A stretch of 58,424 bases of DNA from Candidatus Woesearchaeota archaeon. GTDB lineage: Archaea > Nanobdellota > Nanobdellia > Pacearchaeales > GW2011-AR1. Location of the stretch: assembly GCA_964479755.1 (NCBI GenBank), contig CAYZNI010000003.1, forward strand, positions 1-58,424. The letters run 5' to 3'. The translations under genes were made by a program, and so were the position numbers. Positions 34,908 to 52,930 of the stretch are shown here, piece by piece. The notes below the pieces were generated by a model that was given only the letters and a program-made list of their open reading frames with translations, had not been told where the DNA came from and ran no database searches. Each line of letters begins with the position of its first letter. Position 1 is the first letter of the stretch.

Positions 34908-35633
34908 TTATTCGGTGCTGGTGCTCGCCTTCGCCTGAACAATCATTTCAACCATCAACTTTTCAACTGCAGGCATAATTTCGCAGTTCGCGACTTTTAT
35001 GCTATAGCAATTTCCCATTATGTCAACTCGAGTTTCCTCGCCTCCAGTAATCTCAATCACGGGATTGTTTGGCCTGTTTTCACAAGTCACATATTTTAAA
35101 TTGTTTTTTTCGGCTTCTTCTTTGTTCATTAAAGCGCCCTCAATTTTAATTCCATTAGCTGTTAAAAATCCGGAAAGCGAGGCAAATCCCACGCTGCCAT
35201 ATTCGCATCCAGTTAACCCTTTTTCGTCTGTTACAATAAAAACAGTCTTCTTTTTTGCAAGGTCGATTTCTCCAATCAATGGCACGTGATTTTCCCTGGG
35301 ATCTCCTCTTAAAATCATTTTAACAGCTTTAACATTTGCTTGGCTAGTCGCTCTTCCTGTTATTGGAGTGACAAGATTGTAGGAATATGTGTAAAGCGGG
35401 ATATTTTCAAGGGACTCTTTAGTGAAAGTCATCCCCCGATATTCAAACGTTTTCATGCTCTTCAAGACTGAAGTTGACAGGAAAAAACTTACAAAAATCA
35501 CAACCATAACTCCAAGCACCCAATAAAGTTGTCTAGAATAATTAGGAGCTTCTTTCTTTGCTTCAGTTTCCTTTTTTGATTTTTCAGAGATTAGTTCTTT
35601 CTTATCTTCAGTTTCATTTTTCTTTTTTGCCAT
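34908..35633 (-). CDS. N-terminally anchored extracytoplasmic protein (hypothetical, 4 Cys)
   Basis: 241 aa with a Lys/Glu-rich N-tail and one TM. TAATG overlap with the upstream gene. The C-terminal region is paralogous to the 180-aa neighbour. Confidence 0.6.
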   Translation of the reverse strand: MAKKKNETEDKKELISEKSKKETEAKKEAPNYSRQLYWVLGVMVVIFVSFFLSTSVLKSMKTFEYRGMTFTKESLENIPLYTYSYNLVTPITGRATSQANVKAVKMILRGDPRENHVPLIGEIDLAKKKTVFIVTDEKGLTGCEYGSVGFASLSGFLTANGIKIEGALMNKEEAEKNNLKYVTCENRPNNPVIEITGGEETRVDIMGNCYSIKVANCEIMPAVEKLMVEMIVQAKASTSTE

Positions 35634-36175
35634 TAGTTTTTCCCCATCAATTTGAAAACAAGTGCATCAACCGCCCTTGAATCACCCTCAATGAAAACAC
35701 AGCTTTCATTTTTGAAGACTTTATTTTCCTCGCTATCTTTCCAAATTATCAGGTTTTCAGAGCATTCTTTCTCAGGAAGGTCTTTTTCACAAGGGCCGTA
35801 GCACGCTTCTTGTATTTTGGACGAGTACTTTGAAAGAAACTGAAGAGCATCAGTCAAAACGCTGGGGTTTTCAGCAGCAATATAAAGAGTTTTGCCAACA
35901 TAATCATTCAAGTTGTAGTTTCCCTCGATAGAAACATTGTTAACCTGCTCAATTGTGTTTGAAAAATAAAAAGTTTGCCCTTCAAATTCAACGCCGCCTT
36001 CTAAATTTTGCTGCCCATTTTGTGTTCCATCGCTATTTCCTTGAAAAGTTGAAAAAGCATATCCGATGGTTCCAAGAACTAAAACCGCGAGCATAAACAG
36101 GCTTATATAAGTCGCATTTTTCTTCTTTTTCTCCTCCAAATGCTGTTCCATTCCAACCTTTCTCATATTTCTCAT
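35633..36175 (-). CDS. N-terminally anchored extracytoplasmic protein (hypothetical, 4 Cys)
   Basis: 180 aa with one TM after a basic N-terminus. Lies downstream of the S-layer gene. Confidence 0.6.
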   Translation of the reverse strand: MRNMRKVGMEQHLEEKKKKNATYISLFMLAVLVLGTIGYAFSTFQGNSDGTQNGQQNLEGGVEFEGQTFYFSNTIEQVNNVSIEGNYNLNDYVGKTLYIAAENPSVLTDALQFLSKYSSKIQEACYGPCEKDLPEKECSENLIIWKDSEENKVFKNESCVFIEGDSRAVDALVFKLMGKN

Positions 36176-36447: not shown

Positions 36448-38859
36448 TTAAGCTGTGGTAACTACCGGAGTAATTGCTGTAGCAACTGTTCCAGTGTACT
36501 TCTTGCCAGGCGTTGTGTCAACTGTTAGAGTTTTCAATGCAGTTGCAGCATTAGTTGTATCGCCAGCATTATAACCAGCTACTAATGTTGCTACCTTTCC
36601 TCCAGTTCTTGCGAAAGTCTGGATTAAGTATTGACCGTCTCCAACCATCGTTGCATCAGTGAAGCCCTGTCCGCAAAGAGCTGTTGCGCTTCCAAGAAGT
36701 TCAGCAGCCATTGTGTTGACGCAAGAGCCTCCAACAACAATTAAGTTTTGGTTGCTTAACGTTGCCGCTTCTGTGTCAGTGACTGGCACCGCCACAGTGG
36801 TTGTTCCTCCTCCTTCAGAGGATACCATTGCGTTAACTTCAGACAAGAATACATCTGCATAGGATTCATCACCGTGGTATGTAAGTTCAAGATCATCTTG
36901 ATCTCCGCCAGTGTCTCGCATTGTCTTTGTCGCCAAAGGCGAGTTCACATAGCCGATATATTTATCAGAACCATCGGCAGTTTCGAATTCATCGCTTCCG
37001 CTTAATGAAGCAAGTGAAATTCCGCTCACCGTAGGATCACCAGAGTTAGGGCTTAAAGTAGCCGTAAGTGATGCGCCATCGTTGATGTTTCCATCTTCAT
37101 CTTCCTCAGTGAAGTTCATTGTGAAGGATGTAGGAGGTGCATGAGTTATGTTAATTATTCCGTCACCTGTAGCGGTTACACTATCAACTGGTAGCTGTAT
37201 CTTCAAACCTTCTTTGGTGATTAATCTGTCAGCATAAGCCGTTGCAGATCCCGAACCAGATAAGGCAATAGTCGCAGCTTCAGTACCGCCGTTTTTAGTA
37301 GCAGCACTAAGAGTGACTTCTACATCACCCCAAGATTCAGTTTCTCCAATATCAAGTGTTTTAGTTGAACCGTCAGCTAGATTCTTGATAGTTGTAGTGT
37401 TCTTGGCAGGTGTGCTTGTATCAACTTTTGTGATTTGGAATAGATAGGACTCACCATCATCTCCGCTAATAGCTGTAGCCGGAATCCACTCTACATTATC
37501 AATGTTTGTAAGAGTTAATGTAGGGTCGCTTCCTGTCGCGGTAAGCAATTGCTTCGTTGATGAATCTCCCAATCCTGCAATTCCTGTTCCAGTACTATTA
37601 AGATATAAAAGATTCAAGTCAATATCGCCGTCCTTTATCTCAGTTCTTAACTTCCAGGAATCGCTTCCATCAGGCTCGACTTTTGTCATCTCCTCTTTTG
37701 GAAAGACAAATCCTCCCATCGAAATCTTGATTGTGTTGAAGCCAGGCATTACAAGGTCCTTTCCAGGAACAATCCAGGCGTCATCATCAAGATTCCATTC
37801 AAGAGTTATGCTGTCAAGGTCTGTGGAGCTGTTTGTTAAATAAGCAGTCACAATATGTGAGTAGCCATTAGCATCTTCATTAGCGCTAATATCCTCTCCA
37901 TTTACCTGAACTTCTTGTCCATTTTCCAAGACAATTTTTCCAGTTCCAAGAGTAAATGTCACTTTGCTTATTCCGCTATCTCTTGCGCTGTACAGGACAT
38001 CCTTGACTCCAATGTAGGTGTCTTCAGCTACTTTTTGGGTAGCTCCCTCCGTGAGTTTCTTTGTCGTAACTCCGTTGACTGTAAACATTGCTTCATTGTC
38101 ATCAATGAATGTTGCAGATACATCATAACTTTGGTCTCCAACTGTAACTGTCGTAGTTTCTCCTTCAGCAACAATTGCTTCATTAGCAGTGTCTAAAAGA
38201 GTCAACTTGACTCCATTAGCTGTGTTGTCTGCTTGAGAGATATAGAATGTTTTTCCAAGAAGGGTTATATCTGTTGTTTCAAGGTCATCAAAGTCAGTCG
38301 TTGTTCCTTCTGCAGCATCGCTAAAATCTAGAGTATAGTTCAATACATGAGCTCCCGAAGCAAGGTTTAATCCTATCTTAGGGTCATATTCATTAAACTC
38401 CGAATCTGCGAAGTGAGTTAATGTCAAAGCACTACCAGGTGTAATTGTTTGATCATAGTCAAACTCATCAAAATTGAGGTTTTGGTATGTTCCAGATGCA
38501 AGAACTGTTGACAATTCTCCATCATCCAGAGTGGAGTAAAAGTCCGTAAAGTCCTCTCCAAGGTTGAATTTATTGTTTGTTTTTTCAATCTTAACAAAAT
38601 CTCCCCCGCTGACTGTTGACTCTTCACCCGTTGATGTTCCGACAGAAGCAGTTAGTTTGCTGCTTAAATCAGATTGCACGCCAGTAGCTGCAACTAGATC
38701 TGATGCTGCTGCATCAGTACCTCCGTAAACTATAGCAACATTAGCAGTATTTCCGCTGACAAATGGCGCAGGATAGTTTGCTGCCGCAGCTATTCCAACT
38801 GTAGAACCAATCATTAAAGCGCTTGTAACCAAGCTAGCAATTTTTTTAAATTGTATCAT
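36448..38859 (-). CDS. S-layer protein (Methanococcus-type S_layer_N/S_layer_C-like ends)
   Basis: Sec signal peptide. N-terminus 'ANYPAPFVSGNTANVAIVYGGTDAAASDLVAA' and C-terminus 'NQNLIVVGGSCVNTMAAELLG'. Acidic, Thr/Ser/Gly-rich, with only 2 Cys and six N-x-S/T sequons. Strong AGGAGG Shine-Dalgarno, long leader and T-rich terminator. Confidence 0.75.
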   Translation of the reverse strand: MIQFKKIASLVTSALMIGSTVGIAAAANYPAPFVSGNTANVAIVYGGTDAAASDLVAATGVQSDLSSKLTASVGTSTGEESTVSGGDFVKIEKTNNKFNLGEDFTDFYSTLDDGELSTVLASGTYQNLNFDEFDYDQTITPGSALTLTHFADSEFNEYDPKIGLNLASGAHVLNYTLDFSDAAEGTTTDFDDLETTDITLLGKTFYISQADNTANGVKLTLLDTANEAIVAEGETTTVTVGDQSYDVSATFIDDNEAMFTVNGVTTKKLTEGATQKVAEDTYIGVKDVLYSARDSGISKVTFTLGTGKIVLENGQEVQVNGEDISANEDANGYSHIVTAYLTNSSTDLDSITLEWNLDDDAWIVPGKDLVMPGFNTIKISMGGFVFPKEEMTKVEPDGSDSWKLRTEIKDGDIDLNLLYLNSTGTGIAGLGDSSTKQLLTATGSDPTLTLTNIDNVEWIPATAISGDDGESYLFQITKVDTSTPAKNTTTIKNLADGSTKTLDIGETESWGDVEVTLSAATKNGGTEAATIALSGSGSATAYADRLITKEGLKIQLPVDSVTATGDGIINITHAPPTSFTMNFTEEDEDGNINDGASLTATLSPNSGDPTVSGISLASLSGSDEFETADGSDKYIGYVNSPLATKTMRDTGGDQDDLELTYHGDESYADVFLSEVNAMVSSEGGGTTTVAVPVTDTEAATLSNQNLIVVGGSCVNTMAAELLGSATALCGQGFTDATMVGDGQYLIQTFARTGGKVATLVAGYNAGDTTNAATALKTLTVDTTPGKKYTGTVATAITPVVTTA

Positions 38860-47926: not shown

Positions 47927-49732
47927 ATGGAACAAAAAGAACTCCAAGACGTTGCCAATTTGCTTCGCAGAGATGTTCTCAAAATGACCTCTGCAGCAGG
48001 CAGCGGCCACCCAACATCTTGTTTATCTTGCGCAGAATTAATTTCAGTAATTTTTTTCAATGAACTTAGGCTTTCTGGCGAACTAAACTCAGATGAATTC
48101 GTTTTGAGTAAAGGCCATGCAGCGCCCATCTTGTATGCAGCCCTTTCTCGTTCTGGTATGGTTAAAGAAAATCTGCAAACTTTGAGGAGATTAAACTCAG
48201 CTCTCGAAGGCCATCCAATTCCAGGCAAATTGCCCCGCATTAAAGTGGCTACCGGCTCCTTAGGACAAGGCCTTTCAGTCGGTGTTGGCCTGGCACTTGC
48301 CTCAAAAAAACTTTCTTCAGACTCAAAGACTTATGTCTTGATAGGGGACAGCGAAATGGCAGAAGGCTCTTTATATGAAGCTTTTCAGTTGGCGTCGTAC
48401 TATCATTTAAATAATCTTTGCGCTATCATTGATGTAAATCGCCTCGGCCAAAGCGGTGAAACGATGCTCGGCCACGATCTTGAAACCTACAAAAAAAGAA
48501 TAGAGTCATTCGGCTGGCAGGTTGAGAAAATAAATGGCCATGATACCTCACAAATTTCTTCATCCTTGCAAAAACTTAAATCTTCAGAAAAGCCGTTAGC
48601 AATTTTAGCCAAAACTGTTAAAGGAAAAGGCGTTTCATTTCTTGAAGACAGGGAAGGCTGGCACGGCAAAGTTCTGAATAAACTCGAACTTGAAAAAGCC
48701 CTCAAAGAAATTCCTTCCCCAAAAATGCCTCAAATCAAGCTTCGCAATCCAGAGCCGCTTCAAATTAAAGTTAAAAAATCAAAACTGGACTTGACAAAAT
48801 ACAGGCTTGGTCAAAATGTTTCCACAAGAGAATCCTATGGGGCTGCTCTTGCAAATCTCTGCCTCTCCAGTTCTGATGTTCTGGCTCTTGACGGCGAAGT
48901 CTCAAACTCTACCTTCTCCCAAAAAGTCAAGGTTTTGGTTCCAGAGCAATTTGTCGAATGTTTTATCGCAGAGCAGAATCTGGTAGGAATGGCTCTAGGC
49001 TTGTCAAAAAAGTCATTCAACGTGTTCGCCTCAACTTTTGCCGCCTTTCTTACACGTGCCCACGACCAATTAAGAATGGCTGCCCTCTCCCAGCCCAGTT
49101 TAACTTTCTGCGGCTCTCACGCCGGTGTCTCGATTGGTGAAGACGGAGCCTCGCAAATGGGTTTGGAAGATTTGGCTATGTTCCGTTCCCTGCCAAATTC
49201 AATTGTCTTTTATCCTTCTGACGCGGTTTCAACTGGAAAACTAGTTGAACTCTCAGCCAAAACTCCGGGATTGAAATATCTGCGTTTAACTCGTGGCAAG
49301 ACTCCAGTTATTTACAAAGAAGACGAAAAATTCTCTGTCGGGGACTTCAAAATACTAAAAGAATCTAAATCCGATGCCATAGTTTTAATTGGAGCAGGAG
49401 TAACTCTTCACGAGGCTATAAAAGCGAGTCAGGAACTAAAAAAGAAAAAGCTCAACGCCGCAGTCATAGACCTGTACTGCATTAAACCTTTGAACGCAAA
49501 AAAACTTATTCAATTCATTAAAACTCATGGAAATAAAATAATCATTGCAGAAGACCATTACAAGGAAGGCGGGATTGGAGAAATGCTTTCCTCAGAATTA
49601 ATTAACTCCGGAATTAGTATCGAATCTTTGGCGATTAAAGAAATCCCTCATTCCGGCACTCCAGAACAATTACTCGAGAAATATCAAATAAATGCAAAAT
49701 CAATTGAAAATGCAGCAATTAACTTAGTCTAG
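47927..49732 (+). CDS. tkt: Transketolase (single polypeptide corresponding to the split N- and C-terminal subunit type)
   Basis: 'AGSGHPTSCLSCAELISVIF' and 'GDSEMAEGSLYEA' (ThDP motif), followed by Pyr and C-terminal domains. 601 aa. Confidence 0.9.
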   Translation: MEQKELQDVANLLRRDVLKMTSAAGSGHPTSCLSCAELISVIFFNELRLSGELNSDEFVLSKGHAAPILYAALSRSGMVKENLQTLRRLNSALEGHPIPGKLPRIKVATGSLGQGLSVGVGLALASKKLSSDSKTYVLIGDSEMAEGSLYEAFQLASYYHLNNLCAIIDVNRLGQSGETMLGHDLETYKKRIESFGWQVEKINGHDTSQISSSLQKLKSSEKPLAILAKTVKGKGVSFLEDREGWHGKVLNKLELEKALKEIPSPKMPQIKLRNPEPLQIKVKKSKLDLTKYRLGQNVSTRESYGAALANLCLSSSDVLALDGEVSNSTFSQKVKVLVPEQFVECFIAEQNLVGMALGLSKKSFNVFASTFAAFLTRAHDQLRMAALSQPSLTFCGSHAGVSIGEDGASQMGLEDLAMFRSLPNSIVFYPSDAVSTGKLVELSAKTPGLKYLRLTRGKTPVIYKEDEKFSVGDFKILKESKSDAIVLIGAGVTLHEAIKASQELKKKKLNAAVIDLYCIKPLNAKKLIQFIKTHGNKIIIAEDHYKEGGIGEMLSSELINSGISIESLAIKEIPHSGTPEQLLEKYQINAKSIENAAINLV

Positions 49733-50105
49733 GTACAGCCCAGCCCAAGACACTGTCCGGGTTAATATGCTCGTATAAACTAGTGCCATTAAGCAGCTCT
49801 TCATAAACGGCTCTTATAAAAGGCTTGCCTTGGGCTATGCATTGTCTTTCAATAAAATCCATCTCTAAATCTACAAGTCTTTTTTCTGCATCTGTAATCA
49901 AAGGTAATTCGCCAACATGGCAGCCAAATGGCAGGGATTTTAATTTTTTAGGCCTTTGACCCGCTCCATCAGTTTTATAAGAATCATCACTTTTTCCAAG
50001 CAAACTATAGCCTAAGCCTAACATCACAGCGTCCCTATCAACAACTTCATGAAATGCTCTGTATCCTTCTTGCGTTCTCCGTGCACCTCTATTGTGCTGT
50101 GGCAT
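49719..50105 (-). CDS. Hypothetical protein
   Basis: 128-aa ORF lying 8 nt downstream of the archaeosortase-like gene. Its 3' end overlaps tkt convergently by 14 nt. No motif recognised. Confidence 0.4.
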   Translation of the reverse strand: MPQHNRGARRTQEGYRAFHEVVDRDAVMLGLGYSLLGKSDDSYKTDGAGQRPKKLKSLPFGCHVGELPLITDAEKRLVDLEMDFIERQCIAQGKPFIRAVYEELLNGTSLYEHINPDSVLGWAVPRLS

Positions 50106-50112
50106 TGCAAAA

Positions 50113-50676
50113 TTAAAATATGACTGTATTTAAACCTTTCTCTTCTGTGTTTTTAAGTCGGTCAATCACTTCTTTAACGTCGCTATAAATCGGAATTTCT
50201 TTAAGCTTGTAAATCCAGACATTAATGAACCACAAGGCGACAACAATTACCGTGCTTCCAAAATACCATACAAACTTGTGAGCGATATCAAAATATTGTT
50301 TTCCAGCGACGAAAAAAGCAAGAAAAATTACTATTCTTGAAATGTTTATTGCAAGAAAAGAAAAATAAAGAAAAGCCAGACTCCTTAATCTTGAAGTTAT
50401 TCTCATCGGTGTTGAAAGATTCAATATTGTAAGGAGATACAATGCAGCTCCGGCAATGCAAGCCGCAATTATTTCAGCATATTCGCCTGAAAAGAACACT
50501 AAATTTCCCGGCAAGAGTCTAGCATTAGGATCAAGCAATAAAGTTATCCAATAAACCGGATATATTGTCAGCGGTGTAAAGATAAGATAAAAAATACCCA
50601 AGTTGAACAATCCCAAAGCGAGCAGTATCAGGTACCTGGCTAAAAGTCCAGCAACCCAGTAGTTTTCTTTGTCCAT
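50113..50676 (-). CDS. Minimal exosortase/archaeosortase-family protein (candidate)
   Basis: 187 aa with about 5-6 TM helices. 'EIIAACIAGA' (Cys73 within a TM, CxxG-like), 'AINISRIVIF' (Arg114, 41 residues later, N-x-x-R-I pattern) and 'IAHKFVWYFG' (His133). The neighbouring gene product carries a C-terminal tripartite sorting signal. Confidence 0.5.
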   Translation of the reverse strand: MDKENYWVAGLLARYLILLALGLFNLGIFYLIFTPLTIYPVYWITLLLDPNARLLPGNLVFFSGEYAEIIAACIAGAALYLLTILNLSTPMRITSRLRSLAFLYFSFLAINISRIVIFLAFFVAGKQYFDIAHKFVWYFGSTVIVVALWFINVWIYKLKEIPIYSDVKEVIDRLKNTEEKGLNTVIF

Positions 50677-50706
50677 TAATTACAAGAGAAAAACAAGTTT
50701 AAAATC

Positions 50707-50985
50707 CTATCCTGTAGACTTATCTCTGGGAATTAATGCAATCCCCCTAGCCCTGCAAGTTAAATATACAGTACCTCTTCCTGATGTTCCATATTTTACT
50801 TCAGTTTTATATCTTGTGACCACTTCAGCTTCAGAAGAAACTTTCTCTGCAAATTCATGAATTAATCCCTATTCAAATCCAATTTCAACATGCACGCATC
50901 TTAATTTATTTTCTGAAATATCTTTTCCTTCTGATTTGCAATAATCATCAATACCACAATTCAAAATCTTTTCTAAAGGGAATGC
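50707..50985 (-). pseudogene. Protein-like reading frame without ATG/GTG start, interrupted by an in-frame TAG (50869-50871)
   Basis: Hand translation: AFPLEKILNCGIDDYCKSEGKDISENKLRCVHVEIGFE*GLIHEFAEKVSSEAEVVTRYKTEVKYGTSGRGTVYLTCRARGIALIPRDKSTG*. Confidence 0.3.
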
Positions 50986-50989
50986 TATT

Positions 50990-52930
50990 TTATCTTCTCG
51001 AAATTCTAACAGCCACAACAATTATCAAAATTATCAGGATGACATTTACTGCGCCGATTATCCACAAGTAAGTGTTTCCTCCGCCCAGATTGAATGAGAA
51101 TCCCTGGCTCTGTTTAGGAGCAACTTCAACCGTGACATCTCTTGATTCAGTCTTTCCATTAGATATAGTTTCAATCGTAAAGCTCTGGTCGCCTTCAGCG
51201 TCTTCATTGACCTTGAACTTGATTGTAACTTCAGCTTCTTCTCCAGAATCAAGAGTTAGGCTTTTCTTTGATATGCTGTCCAATTCAGCCCAAGAGTCAA
51301 AGCCATTTACATCAAGAACATAAGTATTCTTTGTCGCGCCAACATTTGTAATCTTTGCCTTTACGCTAAAAGTCTCCCCGGCAATAGAATCTGAACCAAG
51401 TGAAGCGCTTATCAAAGCAGTTCTTCCGGTTGCACCGCTTCCACTTCCACCAGTTCCGTTGTTACCGCCAGTTGAACCTCCGGCGCATCCAAGAACCTTC
51501 AAGGTGACAGGAGTATCTTCATCAGAGTCCTGCCTGTAAGTATTGCTGCTGCTCCTATAGTCGTACTCGGAACTTAATAGCAAAGTGTAGGCTTTGTTTT
51601 GCGCATTTTGTGGAACCGTGAAATCAAATCTTATTTGCTGGCTATCTCCCTTGTCCAAGTTGTTTCTTATTTCAACTGATTGATCAATCTTAAGCTCAGA
51701 ATTTTTCAGATTAATCTTAACTTGATCCTGATCCTTGTCTCCAACGTTCAATACATCCAACATCAAGGACACGCTATCTCCGCAAGTTGCCTCAGTTGGG
51801 CTGGACTGAATCTTGTCAAATAAGATGAATCTTCCTTCATCACTGGTTCTTTTTACCTTTATCTCTCGGAATTGGTCTCCATCAAGAAGGTCTGTGCATT
51901 GTGTTGATTCCGCTCCGTCAGAATAAGCTTTCGCAATTAGTCTGTAATTTCCGGAATCAATGTCAGCAGGGACCCTGAATTCGAACGTGACTGTGTCATC
52001 ATCGCCATCGCCTAAATCTCCAATGTTGATTTCATCTTCATCACTATTCGTAAAATCAAAATCATTCACAACGTTTTTTCCATTGCCGTCAAGTATTCCT
52101 AATCTGACATTTACATCATCTATGTCATCATCTCCTGTGTTTTCAGCCTTAACCTGTACACTTATAGTGTCAAGTAATTCCCATTCATCATCTTTTCCAG
52201 TTCCAGTGTTATCAATCTTAAATTTTGTAATCTCTAATTCTCCAAGATTTCCGTTCTTGCAGAAATTGATTGTTCCAAATGTAGCAGTTACAGACTTGGC
52301 TGCATTCATAGTTACTGTGCAAGTTGAGCTTGTTCCAGAGCAAGCGCCGCTCCATCCTGAGAATGAAGAGCCGCTTGACGCTGCTGCAGTTAATATAACG
52401 TTAGTTCCGCTCGCATAACTTTCAGCGCAGTCGCTTCCACAATTAATTCCAGATGGTGAGGATGTTATTATTCCGCTGCCCGCTCCGGCTTTTGCAACTG
52501 TCAATGCGAAGTTGCTGGATCCGCCTGTTACAGGTACGCTAAATTGTACTGAATCAGCAGTAGCGGTTCCCGAAGGGTTTCCAATTATTGTTCCAGCGAT
52601 GTTTCCAGATTGTCCGGCAGGAATATTGACTGTTGCTGTGATTGTTATTGTCTGTCCAATTGCCAAGTTTATAGGGTTTGACTCGCTAAACGTCATTGAA
52701 CTTATTGTTCCAGAAACGGTCGAACTTGAAAGGTTAAAATTAAAGCTGTCAGAAGTTCCTGTATATGTAGCATTAAATACCACTTGAAATGAAGTTGCGG
52801 TAGATTGAACACTGGCAGGTTGTGAAACCAAGTCCATATTGAAAACTTGGGCGCTGCCAAATCCAGCAGCAAAAGTTATGACTAAAAATGAAAATGCGCT
52901 TAAAATCAAAAAATTTGTTTTGCTGTTCAT
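50990..52930 (-). CDS. Secreted surface protein with an InlB-B-repeat-like domain, CARDB-like domains and a C-terminal sorting signal
   Basis: Sec signal peptide. 'GSGIITSSPSGINCGSDCAESYASGTNVILTAAASSGSSFSGWSGACSGTSSTCTVTMNAAKSVTATF' fits the divergent InlB B-repeat pattern. A Gly/Ser linker follows, and the C-terminus is 'LGGGNTYLWIIGAVNVILIILIIVVAVRISRR'. Confidence 0.7.
   Translation of the reverse strand: MNSKTNFLILSAFSFLVITFAAGFGSAQVFNMDLVSQPASVQSTATSFQVVFNATYTGTSDSFNFNLSSSTVSGTISSMTFSESNPINLAIGQTITITATVNIPAGQSGNIAGTIIGNPSGTATADSVQFSVPVTGGSSNFALTVAKAGAGSGIITSSPSGINCGSDCAESYASGTNVILTAAASSGSSFSGWSGACSGTSSTCTVTMNAAKSVTATFGTINFCKNGNLGELEITKFKIDNTGTGKDDEWELLDTISVQVKAENTGDDDIDDVNVRLGILDGNGKNVVNDFDFTNSDEDEINIGDLGDGDDDTVTFEFRVPADIDSGNYRLIAKAYSDGAESTQCTDLLDGDQFREIKVKRTSDEGRFILFDKIQSSPTEATCGDSVSLMLDVLNVGDKDQDQVKINLKNSELKIDQSVEIRNNLDKGDSQQIRFDFTVPQNAQNKAYTLLLSSEYDYRSSSNTYRQDSDEDTPVTLKVLGCAGGSTGGNNGTGGSGSGATGRTALISASLGSDSIAGETFSVKAKITNVGATKNTYVLDVNGFDSWAELDSISKKSLTLDSGEEAEVTIKFKVNEDAEGDQSFTIETISNGKTESRDVTVEVAPKQSQGFSFNLGGGNTYLWIIGAVNVILIILIIVVAVRISRR

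Follow-up and report, generated by a model that had tools for sequence, protein, structure and literature searches.

A stretch of 58,424 nucleotides (nt) from a Candidatus Woesearchaeota archaeon (GenBank assembly GCA_964479755.1, contig CAYZNI010000003.1), here called the window, carries two neighboring minus-strand genes that very probably encode a pacearchaeosortase and its single dedicated target, a secreted surface protein of the PACE-CTERM type that the enzyme would cleave and anchor. The organism belongs to the DPANN (Pacearchaeota) archaea, and its genome (888 kb in 53 contigs) is 91% complete. Both halves of the pair are already named by curated NCBIfam models, and the pair is therefore not new, although it is unpublished. 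The reading is carried by the family membership of both proteins, by an invariant set of putative active-site residues in the enzyme, by a sorting tail found on one protein of the genome, and by the conserved linkage of the two genes among relatives.

Enzyme identity and putative active site

In an NCBIfam scan, the 187-amino-acid (aa) protein scored 193.5 bits with NF033505 “pacearchaeosortase,” whose cut-off is 80 bits (E = 2.7e-57, model positions 3–164 of 167), and a six-frame search of the genome with the same model found it as a single copy (193.3 bits). Its score against TIGR04178 (exo_archaeo) was 20.1 bits, slightly below the cut-off of 23 bits (E = 5.8e-04, residues 68–154 on model positions 2–94 of 97), and all of its remaining matches, in the same region, were to exosortase and archaeosortase models, including heimdallarchaeosortase and exosortase X. 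We also scanned 35 homologs, 33–57% identical to the window protein, singly against the NCBIfam models. All 35 matched TIGR04178 at E ≤ 0.01 (best E = 1.4e-09), and smaller numbers matched ArtE (26), heimdallarchaeosortase (21), XrtX (12), and ArtA (TIGR04125; one, at E = 0.0027). On these matches, the 187-aa protein is a full member of a curated, DPANN-specific branch of the exosortases and archaeosortases, which are polytopic cysteine endopeptidases or transpeptidases; the initial annotation of this DNA had tentatively mentioned small DPANN-specific subfamilies, and NF033505 is one.

That annotation had looked to both Pfam and the archaeosortase models for a match, and the two gave different answers. 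The NCBIfam models support membership as described above, whereas a Pfam scan of the window enzyme returned zero families, PF09721 (Exosortase_EpsH) included, at E ≤ 1, and PF09721 matched four of the 35 homologs at E ≤ 0.1. The Pfam model is too narrow for the pacearchaeosortase branch and would be misleading if used alone; being silent on the window enzyme and on most homologs, it was dropped as a membership test in favor of the NCBIfam models. Nor is the enzyme unusually small, as had been supposed: the family model has 167 positions and the homologs are mostly 170–207 aa long, so that a small size is the norm for the family.

The open reading frame (ORF) listing and a script reproduced the ORF coordinates, the gap between the genes, the ending of the target, and the three enzyme residues that the initial annotation had singled out. 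Cys73 lies in the motif IIAACIAGA (from residue 69), Arg114, 41 residues further on, in AINISRIVIF (from residue 109), and His133 in IAHKFVWYFG (from residue 131). In the alignment of the 35 homologs, the invariant positions are R14, Y15, T37, A72, C73, G76, A78, L82, L85, R96, N111, R114, H133, W137, W149, P162, and D166; the conservation expected of Cys and Arg thus holds and extends to His133. Cys, Arg, and His form the suspected triad of exosortases and archaeosortases (Haft, bioRxiv 10.1101/2023.06.07.544157), and the activity of ArtA from Haloferax volcanii needs Cys173, Arg214, and Arg253 (PMC9263693). In the numbering of that study, the spacing from Cys173 to Arg214 in ArtA is 41 residues, the same as in the window enzyme.

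An AlphaFold2 model of the enzyme, built from the homolog alignment, is confident (mean predicted local distance difference test, pLDDT, 89.5; predicted template modeling score, pTM, 0.79), with helices at residues 3–23, 27–48, 71–88, 93–124, 126–155, and 162–184 and a beta-hairpin at 53–68. The loop at 89–99 (PMRITSRLRS) is strongly basic and therefore probably cytoplasmic. If so, the order of the helices and the positive-inside rule would place Cys73, Arg114, and His133 on helices 3, 4, and 5, in each case in the outer half. Rhodopsins and DgkA, which appeared when the model was compared with known structures in Foldseek, had E-values no better than 4.9 and were rejected as noise.

The predicted target, its tail, and gene linkage

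The gene located 313 nt upstream, on the same (minus) strand, encodes a 646-aa protein. Its score with NF033506 “PACE-CTERM-PROT, putative S-layer protein” is 486.8 bits (cut-off, 110 bits; E = 1.1e-145), and the alignment spans model positions 3–627 of 627. The family E-values of the enzyme and of the target exclude a chance origin of these matches. Pfam bears out the InlB-B-repeat-like and CARDB-like domains described from inspection (divergent InlB B-repeat PF18998, E = 3.3e-13; CARDB PF07705, E = 2.2e-07) and adds NPCBM_assoc (PF10633, E = 7.6e-10), and the Gly/Ser linker (GGSTGGNNGTGGSGSGATG) lies around residue 485. The C-terminus consists of ...FNLGGGNTY, a hydrophobic helix, and RISRR (ending ...GFSFNLGGGNTYLWIIGAVNVILIILIIVVAVRISRR), and has no PGF motif.

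The tails of 28 family-level relatives yielded the consensus G-[DG]-N-x-[YF]-[LI]-W-[IV]-I-G-x-V-N-V-[IV]-L-[IV]-[IV]-L-I-I-x-V-A-V-[RK]-[VI]-[SA]-R-R-end. Its near-invariant positions (W, G, N, L, II, and A) lie within the helix, where a polar Asn and a Gly are thus conserved, and the upstream Gly run varies. The signal had initially been described as “GGGN-type,” a label that marks the least conserved part of the tail, because conservation peaks in the helix; the conserved signature, which can be shortened to G-[DG]-N-x-[YF]-[LI]-W-[IV]-I-G-x-V-N-V-x-L...[RK]-x-[SA]-R-R, lies mostly within the helix.

A profile built from the tails of 27 relatives, with the window's own tail excluded, was searched against 8317 six-frame ORFs of the genome. 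The adjacent 646-aa protein was the sole significant match (E = 2.9e-17), and the runner-up was a partial ORF on contig C43 at E = 0.06. Since the profile finds just the adjacent protein, we read the two genes as a one-to-one pair, which by this criterion of tail similarity is a dedicated one-enzyme, one-target system. Further proteins with the same tail, which the initial annotation had suggested looking for, were not found at significance among these ORFs; the lack of a second one does not speak against the pairing, because the pairing is backed by synteny in 43 genomes, as described below. Tails on contigs C1, C12, C14, and C19, picked up by simple scans for LGG or GGG followed by a helix, were all rejected by the tail profile. 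The window's other S-layer-type protein (PF05124, S_layer_C) ends in ...ITPVVTTA with no hydrophobic tail, in agreement with the earlier statement that it lacks a sorting signal.

The enzyme might act on additional or other proteins of the genome, and the adjacent protein would then not be its sole substrate. One candidate is encoded on contig C14 (755–2017, minus strand; locus L003) and is a paralog of the C-terminal half of the target: it matches NF033506 at 53.7 bits, below the cut-off, reaches model position 627, and shares with the target a GF-NLGG ahead of the helix (tail FNLGG...helix...TRKPETKEEFGESYY). The other is the C43 runner-up, a partial CARDB-like ORF at a contig edge (2–742, plus strand) that ends in TYLYIIGALILLIIIWRIIVRVRKKKNK and loosely resembles a PACE tail, without the Trp and Asn. 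However, both are non-significant against the tail profile, neither gene is linked to the sortase gene, and members of the C14 family carry a cytoplasmic tail of their own, which is invariant and longer and lacks the W-x-x-G-x-x-N face. We therefore regard additional or alternative substrates as rather unlikely, with the C43 protein a weak candidate for a second target and the C14-family protein probably a surface protein whose anchoring is permanent and whose cytoplasmic tail serves in recognition. In this family of about 420 aa (loci L079–L098), the tail has the form of a helix followed by TRKPETKEE.GESYY, and 19 of 20 relatives, from across the order, retain the final YY, mostly as ESYY.

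Distribution and synteny were examined in 61 relatives of the same order, and linkage was computed, with a limit of 2.5 kb, for the 58 of them in which the enzyme exceeds the NF033505 cut-off. The NF033506 target family is present in 59 of the 61. In a wider, even sample of 401 high-quality genomes across the phylum, the enzyme was over the cut-off in 91, including many families outside the order. Enzyme and target genes are no more than 2.5 kb apart in 45 of the 58 genomes, and 43 of the 58, drawn from at least nine GTDB families, have the target gene upstream of the enzyme gene in the same orientation. This arrangement is found in 34 of the 36 genomes that belong to the same GTDB family as the window, and both exceptions are split across short contigs. 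The remaining 13 of the 58 genomes lack such proximity (10 of these 13 have the two genes on separate contigs). These 13 genomes, together with the degraded gene and the 313 nt that separate the two genes in the window, might be taken to mean that the adjacency is coincidental and that the genes are functionally unrelated. Such a coincidence is hardly credible, as it is effectively refuted by the conservation of order and strand in 43 genomes, and NCBI curates NF033505 and NF033506 as a pair by name. Overall, the dedicated archaeosortase/substrate pair with a non-PGF signal that had been proposed is upheld by the NF033505 score, by the TIGR04178 matches of all homologs, and by synteny.

Proposed mode of action

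The pair would work as follows. The target, exported via Sec, would stay in the membrane through its C-terminal helix, with RISRR facing the cytoplasm. Recognition of the tail by the enzyme may take place for the most part inside the bilayer, at the conserved W-I-I-G-x-V-N-V-x-L face of the helix, together with the adjoining G-[DG]-N-x-[YF] stretch outside the helix, and Cys73, helped by Arg114 and His133, would cleave the tail. By analogy with ArtA of H. volcanii, a membrane lipid would probably receive the new C-terminus, and the Ig-like ectodomain would thereby remain on the cell surface with a lipid anchor. The conservation of a signal inside the helix fits a deeply membrane-embedded protease, an argument that has been made for other systems (bioRxiv 10.1101/2023.06.07.544157). 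More tentatively, and with considerable doubt, we suggest that the signal might be read mainly inside the membrane via a W-x-x-G-x-x-N-x-x-L face, in place of a motif outside the membrane like PGF or PEP, and that the target might be a second lipid-anchored envelope component rather than an S-layer lattice protein; it may not be a lattice protein because the genome has a separate PF05124 S-layer gene.

The location of the best-conserved tail positions within the helix would also suit a stable helix–helix interaction. The surface protein could then be a permanent, type I helix-anchored protein, and the small polytopic protein a sortase-derived partner that does not cleave, such as a chaperone, an insertase, or an envelope-assembly scaffold. 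It would be in keeping with this alternative that the literature search found no demonstrated processing for the pacearchaeosortase family and that the paralogous family of about 420 aa retains a clearly permanent helix with a conserved cytoplasmic ...ESYY tail. By contrast, all 35 homologs share precisely the Cys, Arg, and His residues of the catalytic superfamily, an invariance that would be hard to explain without catalysis, and nothing follows the basic cluster in the tail of the target, which is also how cleaved sorting signals end. We consider a non-cleaving partner very unlikely, and a processing enzyme with a single dedicated substrate remains the reading that we prefer.

Several observations weigh against this preferred reading. 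Our literature search returned zero papers on pacearchaeosortase, paceosortase, PACE-CTERM, or heimdallarchaeosortase, and no experiment on the family was found in it. A sequence search of the PDB with the enzyme gave no match at E ≤ 10, and a Foldseek search of the enzyme model against the PDB gave nothing better than E = 4.9; because both searches came back empty, the superfamily is without a structural template. In other families of the order, the tails diverge (e.g., ...LSNLSGFDLATVNIVLVVAIVLVFAWIMRVRRAY), and little of the signal remains beyond an Asn or Asp near where the helix begins, the helix itself, and basic residues; because of this divergence, the recognition rule is provisional. 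The 13 genomes in which enzyme and target are not within 2.5 kb count on the same side.

Locus context and comparison with known systems

The features of the locus are collected in Table 1. The spacer between the two genes contains a reading frame homologous to intact genes of about 110 aa in relatives (tblastn E = 1.8e-06 and 2.1e-05), which lie between target and sortase genes (L010:2055–2387, L008:2349–2741, L017:826–1317, and L025:2079–2429). Judging from these alignments, the frame is what is left of a small conserved gene that has decayed in this genome. The intact relatives, which end in ...G[TI]ALIP, matched no Pfam or NCBIfam family, and a YbjQ-like identity, considered on account of an ending in ...GTALIP, was dropped because both scans were empty. 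An A/T box (ATTTTAAA) at 50,677–50,710 (minus strand) precedes the sortase ATG by about 27 nt. Because this box matches the usual TATA-to-ATG spacing of the window, it suggests that the sortase gene has its own leaderless promoter and does not rely on read-through from the target gene. The ORF of 128 aa beyond the sortase gene matched no NCBIfam or Pfam family and had no homolog in 60 relatives; it is an orphan gene or else a spurious ORF, and is not counted in the sortase system.

Table 1. Features of the sortase locus and of associated envelope genes in the window (coordinates in nt).
Feature	Position	Strand	Basis and remarks
Pacearchaeosortase gene, 187 aa	50113..50676	-	NF033505; about five membrane helices and a C-terminal amphipathic helix
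Cys73 codon TGC, predicted nucleophile	50458..50460	-	Motif A-C-x-A-G; invariant in 35/35 homologs
Arg114 codon AGA	50335..50337	-	Motif N-x-x-R-I; invariant in 35/35 homologs
His133 codon CAC	50278..50280	-	Motif H-x-x-x-W-Y; invariant in 35/35 homologs
PACE-CTERM-PROT gene, 646 aa, secreted surface protein, predicted substrate	50990..52930	-	NF033506; Pfam Flg_new_2, CARDB, NPCBM_assoc
Predicted Sec signal peptide, residues 1–27, N-terminus MNSKTNFLILSAFSFLVITFAAGFGSA	52850..52930	-	Inspection of the sequence only
C-terminal sorting region FNLGGGNTYLWIIGAVNVILIILIIVVAVRISRR, residues 613–646	50993..51094	-	Tail profile, 60.6 bits, E = 2.9e-17
Predicted remnant of small conserved gene in spacer	50707..51021	-	tblastn; without ATG; in-frame TAG at 50869–50871
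ORF of 128 aa, orphan or spurious	49719..50105	-	Begins 8 nt past the sortase stop; 14-nt overlap with the 3' end of the convergent transketolase gene
S-layer gene	36448..38859	-	PF05124 (S_layer_C)
p182 homolog	35645..36166	-	Downstream of the S-layer gene
p234 homolog	34908..35633	-	Downstream of the S-layer gene

In relatives, the gene directly after the sortase gene is usually a DedA/VTT gene (e.g., L018:2046–2678, plus strand; also L004, L005, L014, and L019), whose best NCBIfam match is the undecaprenyl-phosphate transporter UptA, at 125.6 bits and below the UptA cut-off. The typical layout there comprises the target gene, the small gene, the sortase gene, and in some cases the DedA gene in one direction, followed by convergent genes for proteins of about 234 aa (p234) and about 182 aa (p182) and for the S-layer protein (SUB> small> SRT> [DedA>] <p234 <p182 <S-layer). 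A PAP2-like gene on the opposite strand is also often present between target and sortase in relatives. In the window, the p234 and p182 homologs are directly downstream of the S-layer gene, all on the minus strand, and 14.5 kb away from the sortase gene, and the DedA copies of the genome are unlinked to it, on contigs C17 (251–619), C20, and C23. Because of these positions, the envelope locus has been split or rearranged in this genome.

The NCBI annotation pipeline would label the two genes “pacearchaeosortase” and “putative S-layer protein,” and to this the present finding adds little. A family of very small enzymes (about 170–190 aa) with a single substrate could nonetheless be a convenient minimal system for studying recognition, cleavage, and attachment by exosortases and archaeosortases, and it bears on how DPANN archaea build the envelope that contacts their hosts. 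If the signal is indeed read within the membrane and the target is a second envelope component, the pair would represent a minimal module for envelope anchoring, with one enzyme and one target, in genome-reduced DPANN cells, and in relatives this component would be encoded head-to-tail with its sortase and convergent with the S-layer operon.

Among known systems, ArtE (TIGR04124), heimdallarchaeosortase (NF045528), and exosortase X (NF046081) are the next-best models for the homologs. The heimdallarchaeosortase and exosortase X models are likewise short (199 and 168 positions, respectively), but the window enzyme scores far below the cut-offs of these other small models (19.5 vs. 130 and 15.5 vs. 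170 bits). The ArtA/PGF-CTERM system of H. volcanii, in which experiments showed that C-terminal cleavage and lipid anchoring depend on ArtA (PMC6098224), resembles the present pair in superfamily, in the Cys-to-Arg spacing of 41 residues, and in having a target that is like a major surface glycoprotein, with a motif, a helix, and a basic tail. It differs in that the ArtA model matches only one of the 35 homologs, in the PGF motif, and in the number of targets, which is nine in H. volcanii (PMC6098224) against one here. The closest known system is the NF033505/NF033506 pair itself. The window pair is like it in the full-length matches to both models, in the organism group, and in gene order, and nothing essential differs; compared with the pair in relatives, the differences are local, namely the degraded spacer gene and the location elsewhere of the DedA gene and of the p234/p182/S-layer operon.

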